A stretch of DNA of 63,917 nucleotides, counting the filler, from Rhabdomonas costata (Eukaryota), in NCBI GenBank assembly GCA_019059605.1. It is 35 parts of 35 records of this genome, joined end to end, with 100 filler letters (N's around TTAATTAATTAA, not from the genome) between each part and the next. Parts side by side here need not be neighbours in the genome. Positions count along the whole stretch, not along the records: positions 31,076 to 32,843 come from JAHMHO010009978.1; 34 more parts are not named here. One strand, given 5' to 3'. Numbering within the stretch: position 1 is the stretch's first letter; every line of letters starts with the position of its first letter. Made by a program: the position numbers and the translations under genes. Below are positions 10,801 through 51,233 of this stretch, one piece after another. The notes under the pieces were generated by a model that was not told the origin of the DNA, made no database searches, and saw nothing but the letters and a program-made list of their open reading frames with translations.

Positions 10801-10975
10801 CAGCCCACAACTCCAAAAGAACTGCAATTTGGCAACAATCCGATGCAAAAAAGTGGCCAAAAAGGTGCAGANNNNNNNNNNNNNNNNNNNNNNNNNNNNN
10901 NNNNNNNNNNNNNNNTTAATTAATTAANNNNNNNNNNNNNNNNNNNNNNNNNNNNNNNNNNNNNNNNNNNNGGTG

Positions 10976-11150
10976 GGTGTGTGTGATGGGTTTCTGTTCG
11001 AGGGCGTGGTTTGTGCGCATCACCAGCTCCAGGCCCCGCGGGGGAGATCCCGCACTAACGTCGATGCACGAGCCTGTGGTATGCCCCGCGATCGCGATCG
11101 TGATGCACACAAACCACGCCCTCGAACAGAAACCCATCACACACACACAC
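10976..11150. other. Contig-terminal fold-back (amplification chimera) truncating a UGGT exon
   Basis: 10976-11023 is the reverse complement of ~11100-11150; the loop contains the UGGT exon GSCIDVSAGSPPRGLELVM. Confidence 0.75.
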
Positions 11151-12430: not shown

Positions 12431-12800
12431 CTGGGTCGCCGTAGGAGAGTCCTGCCAAGATGTATCCGACACATCTCACAAAGTAAAGGAGCAAAACAAA
12501 GAATACCCACCGGGATTTAAGGTATAATGAGGCAGCATGAAAAGCTCCGCTATCCATAAAATATCATGAGAAGGAAGGATCAGAAGGAAATTTTCTCGAG
12601 GGCTGAAGCCGAAGCCCCTCAGGTCGAAATTTTTGACTCCACAATTGAGGCAAAAAGGCTGCGAGGCCGTCCTTGCACCACCCCCCCAAACACACCAACA
12701 NNNNNNNNNNNNNNNNNNNNNNNNNNNNNNNNNNNNNNNNNNNNTTAATTAATTAANNNNNNNNNNNNNNNNNNNNNNNNNNNNNNNNNNNNNNNNNNNN

Positions 12801-29500: not shown

Positions 29501-31075
29501 ATGATGCTGTATGATCGATGAATAAAGCGAGTAAATAAAAAAGGAAAAAAGCCAAAGTATCCCATTAAAAGTGAACAGTAATGGGTACGCCCATGACGTC
29601 CTTTGCCTTTGCTGTGCGGTGCGGTGGTCACGTGCCCGCTTTGGCAATCCGTGTGTAGTAGTTTGTCGGGGCCACCGGCGCATTCTTGCGTAGGATGAAA
29701 GAATACCTGTAAATGAACCAGCCCTACCAGGTGGCTACGTGTACATACACCAAGGACACACCATTTGTAATGCTGACCCAGATTGTGGAACCTTTTAACT
29801 TTTTTGGGTAACAGCAAGGTGTGTGAACGCCGGTGGGCTCCAAGGAGGGGGTGTTGTTGCAGCCCTTTCCCCCGGACGTGAATAAAGAGAGGCTTCGTTC
29901 CATTGGCGCCCCTATGGGTAATTTGACCCGACCCATTAGGGGATTGATCCCGCGGTTTTGGTTTTTGGATTCTCGGGCGGTAGCGCGTTGGCGCTTCACG
30001 AGAGAAAAATTGGGCGGTGCGGATTTTCAAATTGACTGAAAGTCGGCGCACCTGTGGGCGGCAAGCGGCGTGGATTTGAACACGCGCATATGTTGATTAG
30101 TTATTAGCGCATTAGCCGCCCCATTAACGGAATCGTTTTTGGTGCCCAACAACTGATTGACTGAAAGCTCGTCGTCGGGAATGTTTTTGCCAACGGCGTT
30201 GGTCAGGACAGAGGTTTGTACAGTCTTTTGTTTTGCAGAGTTTTGGAGTATGTATGCGTTCGGGTTTATGTGTCGATGTGAAAATCGGAGACCAGTCTGA
30301 GACAAGCCCGAAGCACCCATTTACACACACCCATGGGCGTCTATGGCACCTATGCCCACACCCATGGGTTGATGCTTTAATCCACCCGACCCACAACACC
30401 CGAGCCCAGAAATGCAAAAAGTTGTCAAAAGTTGAAACCCTGACCCCAACTTCAAACAGCCGACGTCACTATCAAGGACTATGTCTATACGCATGACACC
30501 ACAAAAACCACGAAAACACGAAAAGCGGAAATCTGAAGAGTTAGAAATTCCAAAATGTCAAAAACCTTCAACATCACACATTCCACTTCACTACCCATCA
30601 CTCTGGACGTTCATCAAGTCGTGTCTTTACTGTGCCAAAAAATGATGTTCCGGTGACGTACAGGCTCCAATCCGACAGGCGGTTTTGAAATCAGAACCAC
30701 CAAACGTTCGAACTGGGACCATGTGCTCCGGAACCCATCATGCCATCATACTTCGCACTGTAGACCGGCAAGGACTACCAGAGGTGCAATGCAGTGTAAC
30801 TTACCGTAGCTACAAACAATCGGGCAGTAAGCGTTGAAAGCCATTGAGGCAACAAAAGTGCGCATTAAATGGGGCAAAAAAAAGTCAGAAGACCTTGTCA
30901 TCATTTCTGACCGTCGCTTCTTTTACCAGAGGCGAAATAGGGAGCCAGGGCCAATGGTGCAGAGCCCAACCCACANNNNNNNNNNNNNNNNNNNNNNNNN
31001 NNNNNNNNNNNNNNNNNNNTTAATTAATTAANNNNNNNNNNNNNNNNNNNNNNNNNNNNNNNNNNNNNNNNNNNN

Positions 31076-31710
31076 AGCCCAGAACCATAAGAGATAGCAA
31101 CAACGAGGTGAAGAACCTTTGACTTGGATTCGTGCTCGTGGCGACCCCTGGCAGTCACAGAAAGCTTTTCAGATTTTTTGAGCCACGCCTTTGATTTCGT
31201 GACACATCCTGATTCTTTTGGCCTCGTTTTGTGCACAAAGCTCACGCAATCCAGGTAAAGACCGACGTTTTCCCAAAACGAAGCTGGGAGATGCTTGTGC
31301 TTTTGGCACCAAGCGAGGCGCTTTTTTCGGTCTTGAGCGGATAGAATTCCTTTCCTGCGCAAATTGCTCCACTGCAGACCACCTCGATGCATTTCCCGAT
31401 ATAGGGTGGACAGCGAGACGCATGACAGCAGGCCGCATTCTTTCGCCAGTTGGCGAACCGAAAAATTTACATTCATTTTCCTCATTTTCCCCACTGCTCG
31501 GATGAGCAGGCGCCTCTCTCGAGCCCCAAGCTTACGGTGGCGACCAGCTGGCTTCGGGAAGCTGGTAACAGGTGATTTTTGCAAAAGCTTCTTTTTAATG
31601 AGGGCAACGGAGCCGAGAGAGATGCCACACTTGGCGGAGATGGTTCTGTACGAAGTACCGCTCAATATAAGGAAAGCAGCCAACGCCCGACGGAAAGAGG
31701 TAATCACCAT
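31076..31710 (-). mobile_element. IS630/Tc1-mariner-like DDE transposase, N-terminal part (runs off contig start)
   Basis: Intronless ORF with HTH (SYRTISAKCGISLGSV), GRxxKL linker (GRHRKLGARERRLLIR), second HTH (SVRQLAKECG...VSLSTLYR), RRKGILSxxDRKKRLAWC...FW and the first catalytic Asp in LYLDCVSF. Start at ATG 31710 is a best guess. Confidence 0.88.
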
Positions 31711-31875
31711 AGATGACGAAAAATGCTCAGGAAAGGCCCTGTAAGAAAACCTTAGAAAAAGCGGTAATGAAGGCAAAAAACCACACAAAATATGCATAAT
31801 GAGAAAAATACAGTCATCACTCAACCCTAATTTTCTGCAAAATCACGTTTTCTTATGACAAGAATTCGATTTGTC

Positions 31876-32074
31876 ACGATGCCCAAACGATGCCCATGAC
31901 AATTTCCACGATGCACATAACGATGCCCATTGTTTTTGACGATGCCCCAACTACGTAAAAGGCTATAAACATATAGCCCTTTTATACAATGCTGGGCATC
32001 GTGAAAAGTGCGGGCAACGTGGTGGGCATCGCTCAAAACAGGCGGGGCATCGTGTAAATTGTGTGGGGCATCGT
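31876..32074. repeat. Imperfect palindrome: five ACGATGCCC-like copies, central hairpin, five inverted copies
   Basis: Forward copies at 31876, 31887, 31908, 31920, 31939; stem TAAAAGGCTATA (31956-31967), loop AACA, TATAGCCCTTTTA (31972-31984); inverted GGGCATCGT-like copies at 31994, 32012, 32024, 32045, 32066. Confidence 0.93.
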
Positions 32075-32410
32075 GCGAAAAACGTTCATTAATGTAGTTT
32101 CCACTGGTCTGTAGACGTTCTGCACAGTGCGTTACCTGGTAGGATGAAAACAACAGTCATTATGCTAAGACAATTGGCCAGATATAAGCCTGTCACGGAT
32201 CGCTGCCTGTATATGCTGTATTCATCTCTGCACAAAAAACACGTGCGCACTCCTGTTTTGATTTTGAAACCATTCAAAAATTCAGTGCACGACAACAAAA
32301 AGCTGCTGAGGAGTTTTCCCGGCGTTCACAGATCAGCACAGCAACAAGGCTACGATATCGACCACTCACGAAAAAATATTTACAATACAACGCAACCCGT
32401 CATAACTCCT

Positions 32411-32842
32411 TCAGGCAAAGGGGTAAGAACCGTGCAAAAGCTCCGCAAAGCAGCGAGGGCATGGAATTGCCTCTTGGTGACAATGGACGGGAATAGAAAC
32501 ATTAAACACAAAAACCCGAAAGCGGTTCCGCATCATTTCGTTTTCGACACCATCCATCACACCATTTTGCACATAAACTGGCACACACTTCCCAGTACAA
32601 AAAACGGGGAGATTATTCGATGCTTCCAGGCAAAAGTCTTCATTGCAGAAGGTGCGGGGCTGTGAAAAATTTACAGTCGCCCCATCCAAAAGCAGCAGCA
32701 TCTGGCTCCACGTCAGAGGCTTTCCATCAACCTGGTTAAACCTGAAATCATCCAATAGGATGACTTCCTTGTTGCGAACAGCAGCAAAGCTAAAATTGTT
32801 CATTGCAGGATTCAAGAGACAGCGGAAAATCTTTTCAAGGGG
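32411..32842 (-). CDS. Superfamily-3 helicase C-terminal half (Rep/NS1-type), N-terminus missing
   Basis: Intronless PLEKIFRCLLNPAMNNFSFAAVRNKEVILLDDFR (Walker B)...LLLLDGATVNFSQPRT (B')...PVFCTG (motif C region)...MMRNRFRVFVF (Arg finger)...CPRCFAELL*. Walker A would lie just beyond the contig end. Confidence 0.78.
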   Translation of the reverse strand, partial: PLEKIFRCLLNPAMNNFSFAAVRNKEVILLDDFRFNQVDGKPLTWSQMLLLLDGATVNFSQPRTFCNEDFCLEASNNLPVFCTGKCVPVYVQNGVMDGVENEMMRNRFRVFVFNVSIPVHCHQEAIPCPRCFAELLHGSYPFA

Positions 32843-33009
32843 TNNNNNNNNNNNNNNNNNNNNNNNNNNNNNNNNNNNNNNNNNNNNTTAATTAATTAAN
32901 NNNNNNNNNNNNNNNNNNNNNNNNNNNNNNNNNNNNNNNNNNNTTTTTGGAAATGTGTTCCCACCGTTCAATGATTTAAAATGTCCAGCTGAAAGGCTAA
33001 AAAATAATC

Positions 33010-38321: not shown

Positions 38322-38456
38322 CACAACNNNNNNNNNNNNNNNNNNNNNNNNNNNNNNNNNNNNNNNNNNNNTTAATTAATTAANNNNNNNNNNNNNNNNN
38401 NNNNNNNNNNNNNNNNNNNNNNNNNNNTTGTTGTGGTGAACAGCCCAAATGAGACG

Positions 38457-39161
38457 CTGTTCAAGGGCGTCGCCAGCTCTGTCACCAGCTTTGCCATAAC
38501 GAACTGCGTCTCATTTGGGCTGTTCACCACAATCCAACAAGCCCTGCGAGCGGCCTTGATTCCTGGCCATGCTGCGGAGGCAGGCATAGTTCAAATCCTC
38601 GTCTTCGCCACGGTGGCCGGAGGCTTCACGGGCTTCTGCAACTCCTTCATCACAACTCCGATGGAGTTTGTGAAGGTTCAGATGCAACTGGACAGTGTCT
38701 CAGCGGGCCGGTTTTCAGGATGCAGCGACTTCGCCGTGGACTGTGTGGTGAAGCATGGCCTGCTCACGCTTTACACGGGGGCTGTGGTAAACTTGGTGAG
38801 GGAGGTGGTCTGGGGGGCGGTCAACTTTGGGGTGTACGAAATCCTCCGGGCACCAGCCACTGGACAATATCTTCGGGGGCTTCCCTTTGCGGGGTTGCTG
38901 GGGACAGTTTTCGTCTGTGGAGGCATAAGTGGCGCTTGTGCCTGCCTTGCAAGCTTTCCCATGGACGCGATGAAGACACACGTGCAAGGCAGGCCGATTC
39001 AGGGGCGCAAGCCGCCGCTTGTGGAGGTGGTGCGGCAGCTGGCACGCCGTGGGCTTCGGGCGTTGTTCAGGGGGCTGGAGGTTTCGCTGGTGAGAAGTTT
39101 CGTGGTGGCATCGGTGCGATTCAGTATCTTTGAGTGTACAATGGCTCTTTTAACATCATAG
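38457..39161 (+). CDS. Mitochondrial carrier family (SLC25) protein, 5'-truncated, no introns in this span
   Basis: Two Px[DE]xx[KR] signatures (TPMEFVK, FPMDAMK) and LFKG / LYTG / LFRG motifs. Bases before ~38457 are a fold-back copy of 38506-38532. Confidence 0.92.
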   Translation: MFKGVASSVTSFAITNCVSFGLFTTIQQALRAALIPGHAAEAGIVQILVFATVAGGFTGFCNSFITTPMEFVKVQMQLDSVSAGRFSGCSDFAVDCVVKHGLLTLYTGAVVNLVREVVWGAVNFGVYEILRAPATGQYLRGLPFAGLLGTVFVCGGISGACACLASFPMDAMKTHVQGRPIQGRKPPLVEVVRQLARRGLRALFRGLEVSLVRSFVVASVRFSIFECTMALLTS

Positions 39162-48298: not shown

Positions 48299-49725
48299 GC
48301 TCCCCCAAAGGTGCTTCGCAACCCAAGCTTCAGGAAATGTCATGCCACATCGTCGTAACATCCGAAGGAACAAAAGGCCAAGAACGCGTACCCTTGTATG
48401 CGTCGCACACGATGAGATTGCCTGCTTTGTCGAAGTGCAGCGCTAGCGGGCGCCCACAAACAGGCTCCATCTCCAGGCTGCCACAGCTCGGGAGCTCGGG
48501 ACCCGTGCGGGTGAAAACCTCGAAAGACTTCGCATCCTAAGTGTGGGCATATGCAAACAGCCACGCCTATCCACGCCATCAACCAAGCACTTCGAGCAAA
48601 AGCGGTTTCTCAAAGTGCGGTGTCGGGCTCACATCAACAACCACATTAACAATTTATTCTACCCTAACAGTGGAGCACGGGAACTGGAACAAAGCACTCC
48701 ACGGCGCTGAACTCGAACAGAAGAGTGGGAGAAGGCTTGGAAGGTGTGGCCAACACCTCTTTGAAGCGAATGATTCGGCCGTCAGTAAGCCCTGCAAGAC
48801 AGACAGAGATGGAAAATCAAAGGGGGAAGGGAGCGTTCGCATGGATTTATCTGCGAACGAGCTCCTTTCGATCCAATTGTGAATCATTGACATTGACAAC
48901 TTCTTCAAAGTGTTGAAAATTTTTCAAAAATCAGGTGCAGCGAAGCTAATCAACTAAATTGCTCAAAAGAAAGGAAGCCGAGGAGGGCGGTCAAAGTTTT
49001 GATTCTTACAGCCAAACGTCAACCAATAAGTTCTATGTCCGGGAGGGACGTGAAGCAGAGACTCTTTTTTTACATTTTTTTGGCACGAGTATTTCCAAAA
49101 AAAGAATTGCAGACTTTTCTTTATACAATCTTTTCATGCACAATTTTTCCTTTGAGAATAAAATATATAATACAGTCCCGCAGTCATGGGGCACCAAAGA
49201 CTGATTTCAAATTATTTTTAGATATACCAACGCATGCGTGTAGCACAAATGACGTCAAAGTTAGGCGCTAGTGCATTTATGCCCCCCCCCCGGTANNNNN
49301 NNNNNNNNNNNNNNNNNNNNNNNNNNNNNNNNNNNNNNNTTAATTAATTAANNNNNNNNNNNNNNNNNNNNNNNNNNNNNNNNNNNNNNNNNNNNGGGGT
49401 GTGTGCACAATCTTAAACTTCTCACCGCTGACCTTACGCTTCTGGCCATCACGGCCACAAACCGATTGCAGCTACTAGAACCATTCAAGCAGGTGTATCG
49501 CCGCAACGCAGAAGGAGCTGAACAATTGTAAAAATCACAATATCACAATCTTGCACAAACTCGGCCGAAATGAACCGCTATTCACGTCGGAGCTCATCTG
49601 GCCTCATAGGGGAAAACCTTGTGCCGGTGGTGCTGTTTCAGGCACCGCTGCTGCACATGGCGAAGGAGAGTGTGTAGGCGGGTCTGCACAGCACTCACCC
49701 GAGTGCTGTGGACATAGTGAATCAC

Positions 49726-50814: not shown

Positions 50815-51233
50815 CTGTGGTGTGGGCCAGCCATGCGATCCCTCGGTTGGCGATCCATTCACTCAACACAAGGTGAATTCATGTGTGGGATTGCGGAGCA
50901 AAATGAAGACGCTTTTTCGATTGCTGCTACCATGCAATGGGGGGGAAGTGTGAGCGCAAGAATGAAGAATGAAGAGTTAACAATGGAGTAAACCAATCCG
51001 GTCCATCACCTCAACATATGCCATTTGAAGACCAAACGGATGCAATCTTTTAAGGTGGCTTCTGCAGTGACCCCGTTACAAAGGAATGGCACGTCAACAA
51101 CCCCACCCAAACACACCCACCACNNNNNNNNNNNNNNNNNNNNNNNNNNNNNNNNNNNNNNNNNNNNTTAATTAATTAANNNNNNNNNNNNNNNNNNNNN
51201 NNNNNNNNNNNNNNNNNNNNNNNTTGGTTTGTT

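Follow-up and report, generated by a model that had tools for sequence, protein, structure and literature searches.

Within an assembly of the eukaryote Rhabdomonas costata, ten copies of a 9-nt word, five in one orientation and five inverted, surround a small hairpin between a gene for a viral-type replication initiator (Rep) and a gene for a Tc1-like transposase. The question that this locus raises is which of the two neighbors the array serves, and in what process. The window, by which we mean the whole stretch of DNA analyzed (63,917 nt), consists of 35 unrelated contigs of 1,720-1,768 nt each, separated by linkers of the form N44-TTAATTAATTAA-N44 (for example, 1727-1826, 30976-31075, and 32844-32943). 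Because it is a concatenation of unrelated contigs, features are unreadable across the linkers. All that is known of the putative element is the 1,768-nt contig at 31076-32843, which contains the 3' end of the Rep gene and the 5' two-thirds of the transposase gene, with 700 nt of spacer between them. The initial annotation had offered two explanations for the array, the joined ends of a transposon and an iteron-flanked stem-loop origin. We tentatively favor the second in a modified form, with a Rep68-like Rep and with the sites forming one phased unit. Possibly, the five sites, the hairpin, and the other five sites together constitute the replication origin (the predicted Rep-binding site) of a small eukaryote-associated replicon.

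Architecture of the array

A motif scan combined with folding bore out the arrangement that had been described. Ten ACGATGCCC-like 9-mers with at most one mismatch lie within 31876-32074, five on the + strand and five on the − strand, and flank a central hairpin. The components are:

31876-31947, + strand: left array, 9-mer ACGATGCCC starting at 31876, 31887, 31908, 31920, and 31939
31956-31984, no strand assigned: central hairpin (palindrome), TAAAAGGCTATA-AACA-TATAGCCCTTTTA, with a 12-bp stem, one bulge, and the 4-nt loop AACA
31979-31986, − strand: TATA-box-like word TATAAAAG, within one hairpin arm and oriented toward the transposase gene; it lies 276 nt upstream of that gene's start codon (ATG)
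31994-32074, − strand: right array, inverted 9-mers at 31994-32002, 32012-32020, 32024-32032, 32045-32053, and 32066-32074

The left-array copy at 31908 reads ACGATGCAC, and the right array includes the variants ACGTTGCCC (32012-32020) and GCGATGCCC (32024-32032). The sites are spaced by 11, 21, 12, and 19 nt (start to start) in the left array and by 18, 12, 21, and 21 nt in the right array. Across the window, 26 matches to the 9-mer were found at up to one mismatch, ten inside the 199 nt of the array and 16 scattered over 63.7 kb. Shuffling the whole window gave a mean of 11.05 matches, and 26 was reached in none of 100 shuffles. One 8-mer occurs 8 times within 200 nt; when the contig was shuffled 300 times, the mean was 2.2 and the highest value 6. 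No extra 9-mer copies were present near the array at up to two mismatches, and neither the palindrome nor the 9-mer array has a second copy in the other 34 contigs (approximately 60 kb). The annotation had also considered that the array might occur independently as a miniature inverted-repeat transposable element (MITE); other copies were sought in this window alone, and none is there. The central hairpin has a folding energy of −7.2 kcal/mol (z −4.1), and that of the − strand is −7.0 kcal/mol (z −3.7). The GC content of the center (31950-31990) is 29%, versus 49% for the array. When 219 nt are taken together, they fold as a single long imperfect hairpin (−54 kcal/mol, z −6.6).

Measured from the center at 31969.5, the left sites lie at distances of 30.5, 49.5, 61.5, 82.5, and 93.5 nt, and the right sites at 32.5, 50.5, 62.5, 83.5, and 104.5 nt. 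Four site pairs are mirrored within 1-2 nt, and the outermost pair is off by 11 nt, which equals one helical turn. The 9-mers of mirror partners are identical at 42 of 45 positions and the spacers at 29 of 61. The central spacer, which bears the hairpin, accounts for 16 identities in 24 positions, and the remaining spacers for 13 in 37. Only in the 9-mers and the hairpin have the arms thus escaped divergence to near-random similarity, and the higher identity of the 9-mers and the central spacer relative to the other spacers argues for selection on the 9-mers and on the hairpin. Such a pattern is characteristic of a set of protein-binding sites combined with a single structural element. The similarity of the arms extends approximately 15 nt past the outermost 9-mers. 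A fold-back artefact of amplification is ruled out, since the arms differ at half of the spacer positions.

The spacers had been described as partly mirrored as well. The matches themselves (TGTTTTTG/CAAAACA and ACAATTT/AAATTGT) are real, but they do not occupy mirror-equivalent places: module L2-L3 matches R4-R5, and the spacer of L5 matches that of R3, which is more the manner of a repeated module than of a simple decayed palindrome. In line with such a module, a T3-T5 tract is present on the iteron strand in all five spacers of at least 9 nt (31889-31938 and 32003-32065). With the units in helical phase, these T-tracts could add intrinsic curvature, and the sequence points to a repeated unit of iteron plus T-tract, with units apparently gained or lost in whole helical turns.

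Phasing ties the two arms together. At a period of 10.5 bp, the phase coherence R of the sites is 0.91 in the left arm, 0.85 in the right arm, and 0.87 for all ten, and the value for all ten drops to 0.26 at 10.0 bp and to 0.12 at 11.0 bp. None of 5,000 random site placements reached 0.87. The mean phase is alike in the two arms (2.57 nt in the left and 3.0 nt in the right), and when one arm was slid relative to the other, no shift gave a better register across the center than 0 or −1 nt. The common 10.5-bp register across the center therefore indicates that the two sets of five sites and the hairpin are one contiguous unit, with the sites on one face of the duplex.

The Rep and transposase genes

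The array lies between the stop codon of one gene and the start of another, as the initial annotation had stated, and both of its gene calls were right: the "helicase" is the superfamily 3 (SF3) half of a predicted HUH Rep, and the "transposase" is Tc1-like. The start of the transposase gene had to be moved from 31824 to a conserved Met at 31710. The description of the array as mid-contig holds only for the 1,768-nt contig. The parts of this contig outside the array are:

32842-32411, − strand: 3' part of the Rep gene, 143 codons plus the TGA stop at 32413-32411, cut by the contig end
32075-32410, no strand assigned: spacer between the Rep stop and the array, 336 nt, without iterons
31711-31875, no strand assigned: spacer between the array and the transposase ATG, 165 nt, probable 5' leader
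31710-31076, − strand: 5' part of the Tc1-like DDE transposase gene, first 211 codons, cut by the contig end

The Rep fragment begins just past Walker A and includes Walker B (VILLDDFR), motif C, an Arg finger, and, at the C-terminus, PCxRCF. The fragment alone has no Pfam or PDB sequence match. With a threshold of E ≤ 1e-3, an exhaustive profile-free search recovered 374 relatives, and 112 remained at E ≤ 1e-10; the full-length ones are approximately 440-580 amino acids long, and the fragment matches their C-terminus. An alignment of 18 relatives with the fragment revealed motif I (VYLVTYS), HUH (H-Y-H), YxxK, Walker A (GPANCGKS/T), Walker B (LNDFR, with LLDDFR in the contig), motif C, the Arg finger, and the terminal PCxRCF. 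HUH and YxxK are present in all 18 aligned full-length relatives, and the contig itself holds only the SF3 half. The relatives match the Pfam families PPV_E1_C, Parvo_NS1, Gemini_AL1, and REP_ORF2-G2P, in every case below the cut-off. The AlphaFold2 (AF2) model of one relative (P0002, pLDDT 80.1) has full-length Rep68 of adeno-associated virus 2 (AAV2) as its best match (E 3e-13), and its helicase half also matches the structures of papillomavirus E1, simian virus 40 (SV40) large T antigen (LTag), parvovirus B19 (B19V) NS1, and redondovirus Rep. Judged by the alignment and this model, Rep is a predicted AAV-Rep68-like initiator that combines an HUH nuclease with an SF3 helicase.

In the ESM Atlas, the Rep family is placed beside a eukaryote-encoded "replication-associated" cluster, in which Cnidaria are commonest, and beside parvovirus NS1 clusters. 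Eleven of the 29 full-length relatives lie on contigs of 3.7-4.9 kb; the contigs of three others measure between 188 kb and 2.7 Mb. One protein of 1,007 amino acids (P0067) joins a Rep-like segment to SAM domains, and one 90% cluster (P0159) has 312 member sequences; together these two suggest captured or multicopy genomic forms of the Rep family in some eukaryote. From the contig sizes of the relatives and the 312-member cluster, the family exists both as small units and as integrated copies in eukaryote genomes.

Prokaryotic sources were searched too. P0002 had no tblastn match in phage and plasmid records, and the array contig had no blastn match in plasmids. A scan of bacterial and archaeal genome contigs for the close Rep subgroup gave 30 pattern matches, none of them confirmed, and a scan for the wider family gave 76, of which a single locus (L001) was confirmed. 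L001, the sole Rep match in 185,579 bacterial and archaeal genomes, is a mis-binned, decayed eukaryotic copy (33% identity, broken Rep frame), with no transposase (best tblastn E 0.47) and no iterated motif near Rep. This locus also carries a GCGGAAGGCA tandem at L001:1633-1680 (10-nt unit, approximately 5 copies), 4.5 kb from Rep, and a 115-nt inverted repeat at L001:6334-6568 (99% complementary, 5-nt gap) inside the decayed Rep, which has the look of either a fold-back insertion or an artefact of assembly.

The transposase matches HTH_Tnp_Tc3_2 with E 6e-7 and 30.1 bits, below the Pfam cut-off of 31.5. Its features include a predicted paired-type helix-turn-helix (HTH), a linker of the form GRxRK, and, within YLDCVSF, the first catalytic D; the third catalytic residue lies beyond the contig end. 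The only relative found in the protein collection (P0001) is 77% identical, shares the start Met, and contains the second catalytic D (QDND). In the ESM Atlas, the neighbors of the transposase are DDE_3 clusters, with TM scores of 0.54-0.66 to clusters of Tc1, Tcb1, and Sleeping Beauty. The frame remains open through 31711-31875, and the peptide obtained by reading through it is in part similar to the N-terminal extension of P0001. Since one transposase relative contrasts with at least nine close Rep relatives, the transposase is not a fixed partner of the Rep family. From these sequence counts, it would be a lineage-specific addition outside the standard kit of that family.

Replication origin, transposon ends, or promoter

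Several features of the locus count for an origin, among them the preferential conservation of 9-mers and hairpin, the helical register common to both arms, and the lack of a fixed transposase partner in the Rep family. The center is AT-rich and forms a hairpin on either strand, and an intergenic origin of a circular replicon sits in the middle of a contig without any special event. The 3.7-4.9 kb contigs of the relatives suit small replicons. By analogy, proteins of the Rep68, E1, LTag, B19V NS1, and redondovirus Rep type bind repeated origin sites, which would support the same role here. As in origins of the CRESS viruses (viruses with circular, Rep-encoding genomes of single-stranded DNA) of the geminivirus and nanovirus kind, a stem-loop with adjacent iterons is present, all ten 9-mers lying within 105 nt of the center. 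According to the accessible portion of one source, nanovirids and some geminiviruses have iterons to either side of the stem-loop, some of them inverted, and Rep binding at such iterons distorts the duplex so that the hairpin forms (PMC10653810). Redondovirus Rep is described as forming hexamers and dodecamers in the available part of another (PMC12981564).

If this reading is correct, the N-terminal HUH/origin-binding domains of Rep would recognize the 9-mer iterons in duplex DNA. Because the ten sites lie on one helix face and the long spacers carry T-tracts, we propose that two oppositely oriented Rep oligomers could form, one on each arm, and place the 29%-GC center under strain. The center would then melt or extrude the hairpin, the HUH active site would nick the exposed single strand, and the SF3 helicase would be loaded. 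The iterons would probably also throttle the central TATA-like promoter that faces the transposase gene. That Rep rather than the transposase binds the 9-mers, where the nick falls, and that the replicon is circular are all points that we infer.

Other observations weigh against an origin. The nonanucleotide NANTATTAC, and even TATTAC, is absent from both strands of the contig, as the initial annotation had noted for the canonical nonamer, and the loop is only 4 nt long; the array is thus not a canonical CRESS origin. The HUH half of the contig's own Rep lies off the contig. Rep is only the predicted binder of the 9-mers, and the adjoining transposase likewise has a sequence-specific HTH. The arm tips read TA-TAG at the center, like a published consensus for Tc1/mariner-like ends, and the central TATA-like word permits a purely transcriptional reading. 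Finally, no iteron array exists within 5 kb of Rep at L001.

The arm tips and the neighboring transposase lead to the alternative that the arms are the right and left terminal inverted repeats (TIRs) of a Tc1-like transposon with Rep as cargo, their tips having been joined either in a circle formed by excision or in tandem copies arranged head to tail, and that the 9-mers bind the transposase. We regard this as unlikely, although a Tc1-like DDE transposase with a predicted paired-type HTH is adjacent, and each arm runs TA-TAGCC outward from the center, with a 4-nt spacer between them. From the center, the right arm reads TATAGCCC and the left arm, as its reverse complement, TATAGCCT. A weak end consensus, 5'-TAYAGYNR-3', is said to resemble Tc1/mariner ends (PMC3464196); the arm tips match it with low information and do not fit at the last position, and the TA adjoining each tip at the center alone proves nothing about target duplication. 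Conserved tips and internal sites with free spacers are also typical of transposon ends, and Rep and transposase open reading frames (ORFs) within one TIR-bounded element are reported from Tuber melanosporum in the accessible part of PMC3198968. For joined ends, however, the circle or tandem would need to be the dominant assembled form, and the optimal register across the junction would be expected approximately 1 time in 4 from an arbitrary spacer. No second copy or host flank is present in the window, and with a single transposase relative in the protein collection there is nothing to indicate a multicopy element. Sites at intervals of 11-21 nt, five per arm, would in addition be too tight for a bipartite paired-type domain on each. 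To our knowledge, five closely spaced 9-mers per arm correspond to no described Tc1/mariner end design. Alternatively, the palindrome of approximately 200-230 nt might be a single self-palindromic Tc1-like end, or a fold-back or MITE-like insertion between genes, with its true tips at the outer edges (approximately 31860 and 32090) and with Rep as a neighbor or target. Multi-ORF IS630/Tc1 transposons with palindromic TIRs are documented, and in Paramecium Sardine and Thon, both multi-ORF elements of this group, the TIRs (425 bp in Sardine and approximately 700 bp in Thon) are themselves palindromic (PMC3464196). The arm similarity beyond the outermost 9-mers and the start of the transposase 165 nt from the palindrome would agree with this. 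Such an end is nevertheless quite unlikely: the palindrome and the array have no other copy in the remaining 34 contigs, a clear outer boundary flanked by TA was not found, and the element's other end is off the contig. Nor does it explain why the palindrome sits 336 nt downstream of a gene for a Rep, a family expected to need such sites.

The central hairpin with its TATA-like word may instead act as a core promoter, either for the transposase gene or in both directions, with the ten phased sites as operators for an autoregulatory DNA-binding protein and no role in replication or transposition. The position of TATAAAAG upstream of the transposase ATG, with five sites in between, agrees with a promoter, and the sites share one helical face, as in cooperative repressor arrays. 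In R1 parC, two five-repeat sets flank a promoter, and the Rep-binding iterons of geminiviruses usually double as operators. AT-rich origin cores are commonly TATA-like, however. A purely transcriptional function is hence improbable in our view; regulation is compatible with an origin and would be more an added role than a rival, and the two may well coexist. The structural likeness of Rep to AAV Rep68 brings to mind a parvovirus-type terminal hairpin, or inverted terminal repeat (ITR), of a linear single-stranded DNA genome, which would appear internal because identical ends had been collapsed or had been linked within a circle, episomal or assembled. In single-stranded form, these 219 nt make one long hairpin that pairs each 9-mer with its partner, and the relatives' contigs are parvovirus-sized. 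Against this, hairpin-transfer replication would keep the arms matched, and the spacers are identical at 29 of 61 positions. Unique co-oriented genes lie on both sides of a palindrome that is internal to the contig, and no capsid gene is seen on the contig. An ITR is accordingly extremely unlikely, and the array has neither the terminal position nor the near-perfect arms of a parvovirus-type terminal hairpin. A Replitron is ruled out by the SF3 helicase of Rep.

Two of these functions could also be combined. In a dual-mode eukaryotic mobile replicon, the Rep68-like protein would replicate the episome, the Tc1-like transposase would carry out entry and exit, and the joined ends would create the origin, which we consider very doubtful. 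Equally doubtful is the corollary that the 9-mer arrays are at once transposon ends and origin iterons, so that excision switches replication on. Circle junctions of bacterial insertion sequences (IS) that assemble a promoter offer an analogy.

Known systems and further observations

The origins of geminiviruses and nanoviruses likewise have short Rep iterons flanking a stem-loop near rep, in nanovirids on both sides and some of them inverted, as far as the available text of the source indicates. They differ in that the array here has ten 9-nt copies in a near-symmetric 5 + 5 layout and a 4-nt loop, without the nonanucleotide, and in that the Rep here is much larger (approximately 450 amino acids in relatives), with a linker that is long and helical, and stands structurally closer to AAV Rep68. 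The initiators AAV Rep68/78, SV40 large T, and papillomavirus E1 belong to the same fold class, an origin-binding domain with an SF3 helicase. At their origins, several origin-binding domains occupy repeated words, and inverted sets flank the melting site. The AAV repeats are contiguous tetranucleotides in a terminal hairpin with matched arms, whereas the 9-mers here are spaced by 11-21 nt in an internal, diverged palindrome; the SV40 and papillomavirus initiators lack an HUH nuclease. With Tc1/mariner ends, including those of Sardine and Thon, the locus shares the adjacent Tc1-like DDE transposase and the TA-TAG arm tips, and palindromic TIRs exist among them. The geminivirus-like element of Tuber melanosporum (Liu et al. 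2011) resembles it in uniting viral-type Rep and transposase ORFs in one unit. In the accessible part of that article, the element has 37-bp TIRs, a geminivirus-like Rep, and approximately 42 genomic copies, whereas the Rep here is of another family and no copies occur in the window. Replitrons (Craig 2023), to go by the available portion of the paper, are mobile elements of eukaryotes; they encode an HUH Rep related to the CRESS group and have short direct repeats at their ends or close to them, and their transposases are without the SF3 helicase present here.

Iterons around a hairpin beside a rep gene are a known kind of element. New are the symmetric and phased 5 + 5 layout, the absence of the nonanucleotide, an essentially undescribed Rep68-like family, and the neighboring Tc1-type transposase. 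In the full-text literature searched (subscription journals lying outside it), no description was found of a Rep68-like Rep paired with a Tc1-type transposase, the Tuber element being the nearest. Queries there for the 9-mer with "iteron", and for SF3 helicase with mariner, transposase, and HUH, returned nothing. If the array is an origin, it would be a compact and highly symmetric one for a little-studied family of Rep68-like initiators, and a defined substrate for the assembly of an HUH/SF3 initiator on duplex DNA and for the choice of the nick site. Where a DDE transposase neighbors a viral-type Rep, small DNA replicons would have a candidate route into the chromosome. Should the arms prove to be transposon ends, they would represent an unusual end design for the Tc1 family.

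The array was also considered as a coding or an RNA element. A 109-codon frame spanning it has no Pfam family and no homologue and was rejected, and the only Rfam match was at chance level (E 0.7). Between the Rep stop and the array, an imperfect 28-nt palindrome at 32233-32260 contains CACGTG. An ORF at 32144-32665 (+ strand; 173 codons from the ATG, 190 from stop to stop) begins 70 nt to the right of the array and heads away from it, antisense to the 3' end of Rep. Its sole Pfam match is a weak one to UPF0262 (E 0.03), and it may represent either a gene transcribed divergently or an artefact of the antisense strand.

Base composition was not discriminating: GC at third codon positions is 0.50 in Rep and 0.55 in the transposase gene, and the overall GC content of the array contig is 0.465, compared with a window mean of 0.505±0.051. 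The array contig shares no sequence or protein similarity with the other 34 contigs (approximately 60 kb), among which no other pieces of the element were found, and ARAGORN detected no tRNA in the window. In most contigs, a run made up of G and T alone opens the sequence and one made up of C and A alone closes it, over the first and last 10-20 nt or so (for example, 10972-10993, 12679-12700, 49396-49410, and 51102-51123); these runs are suspected to be leftover degenerate primers of whole-genome amplification. The array contig lacks such ends and is approximately 40 nt longer than its neighbors. Neighboring contigs encode eukaryote-type proteins by our own reading of the translations, such as a mitochondrial-carrier-like ORF at 38433-39161. 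One contig (54878-56605) has a GC content of 24%, compared with a window mean of 50.5%, and may be organellar or from another organism.

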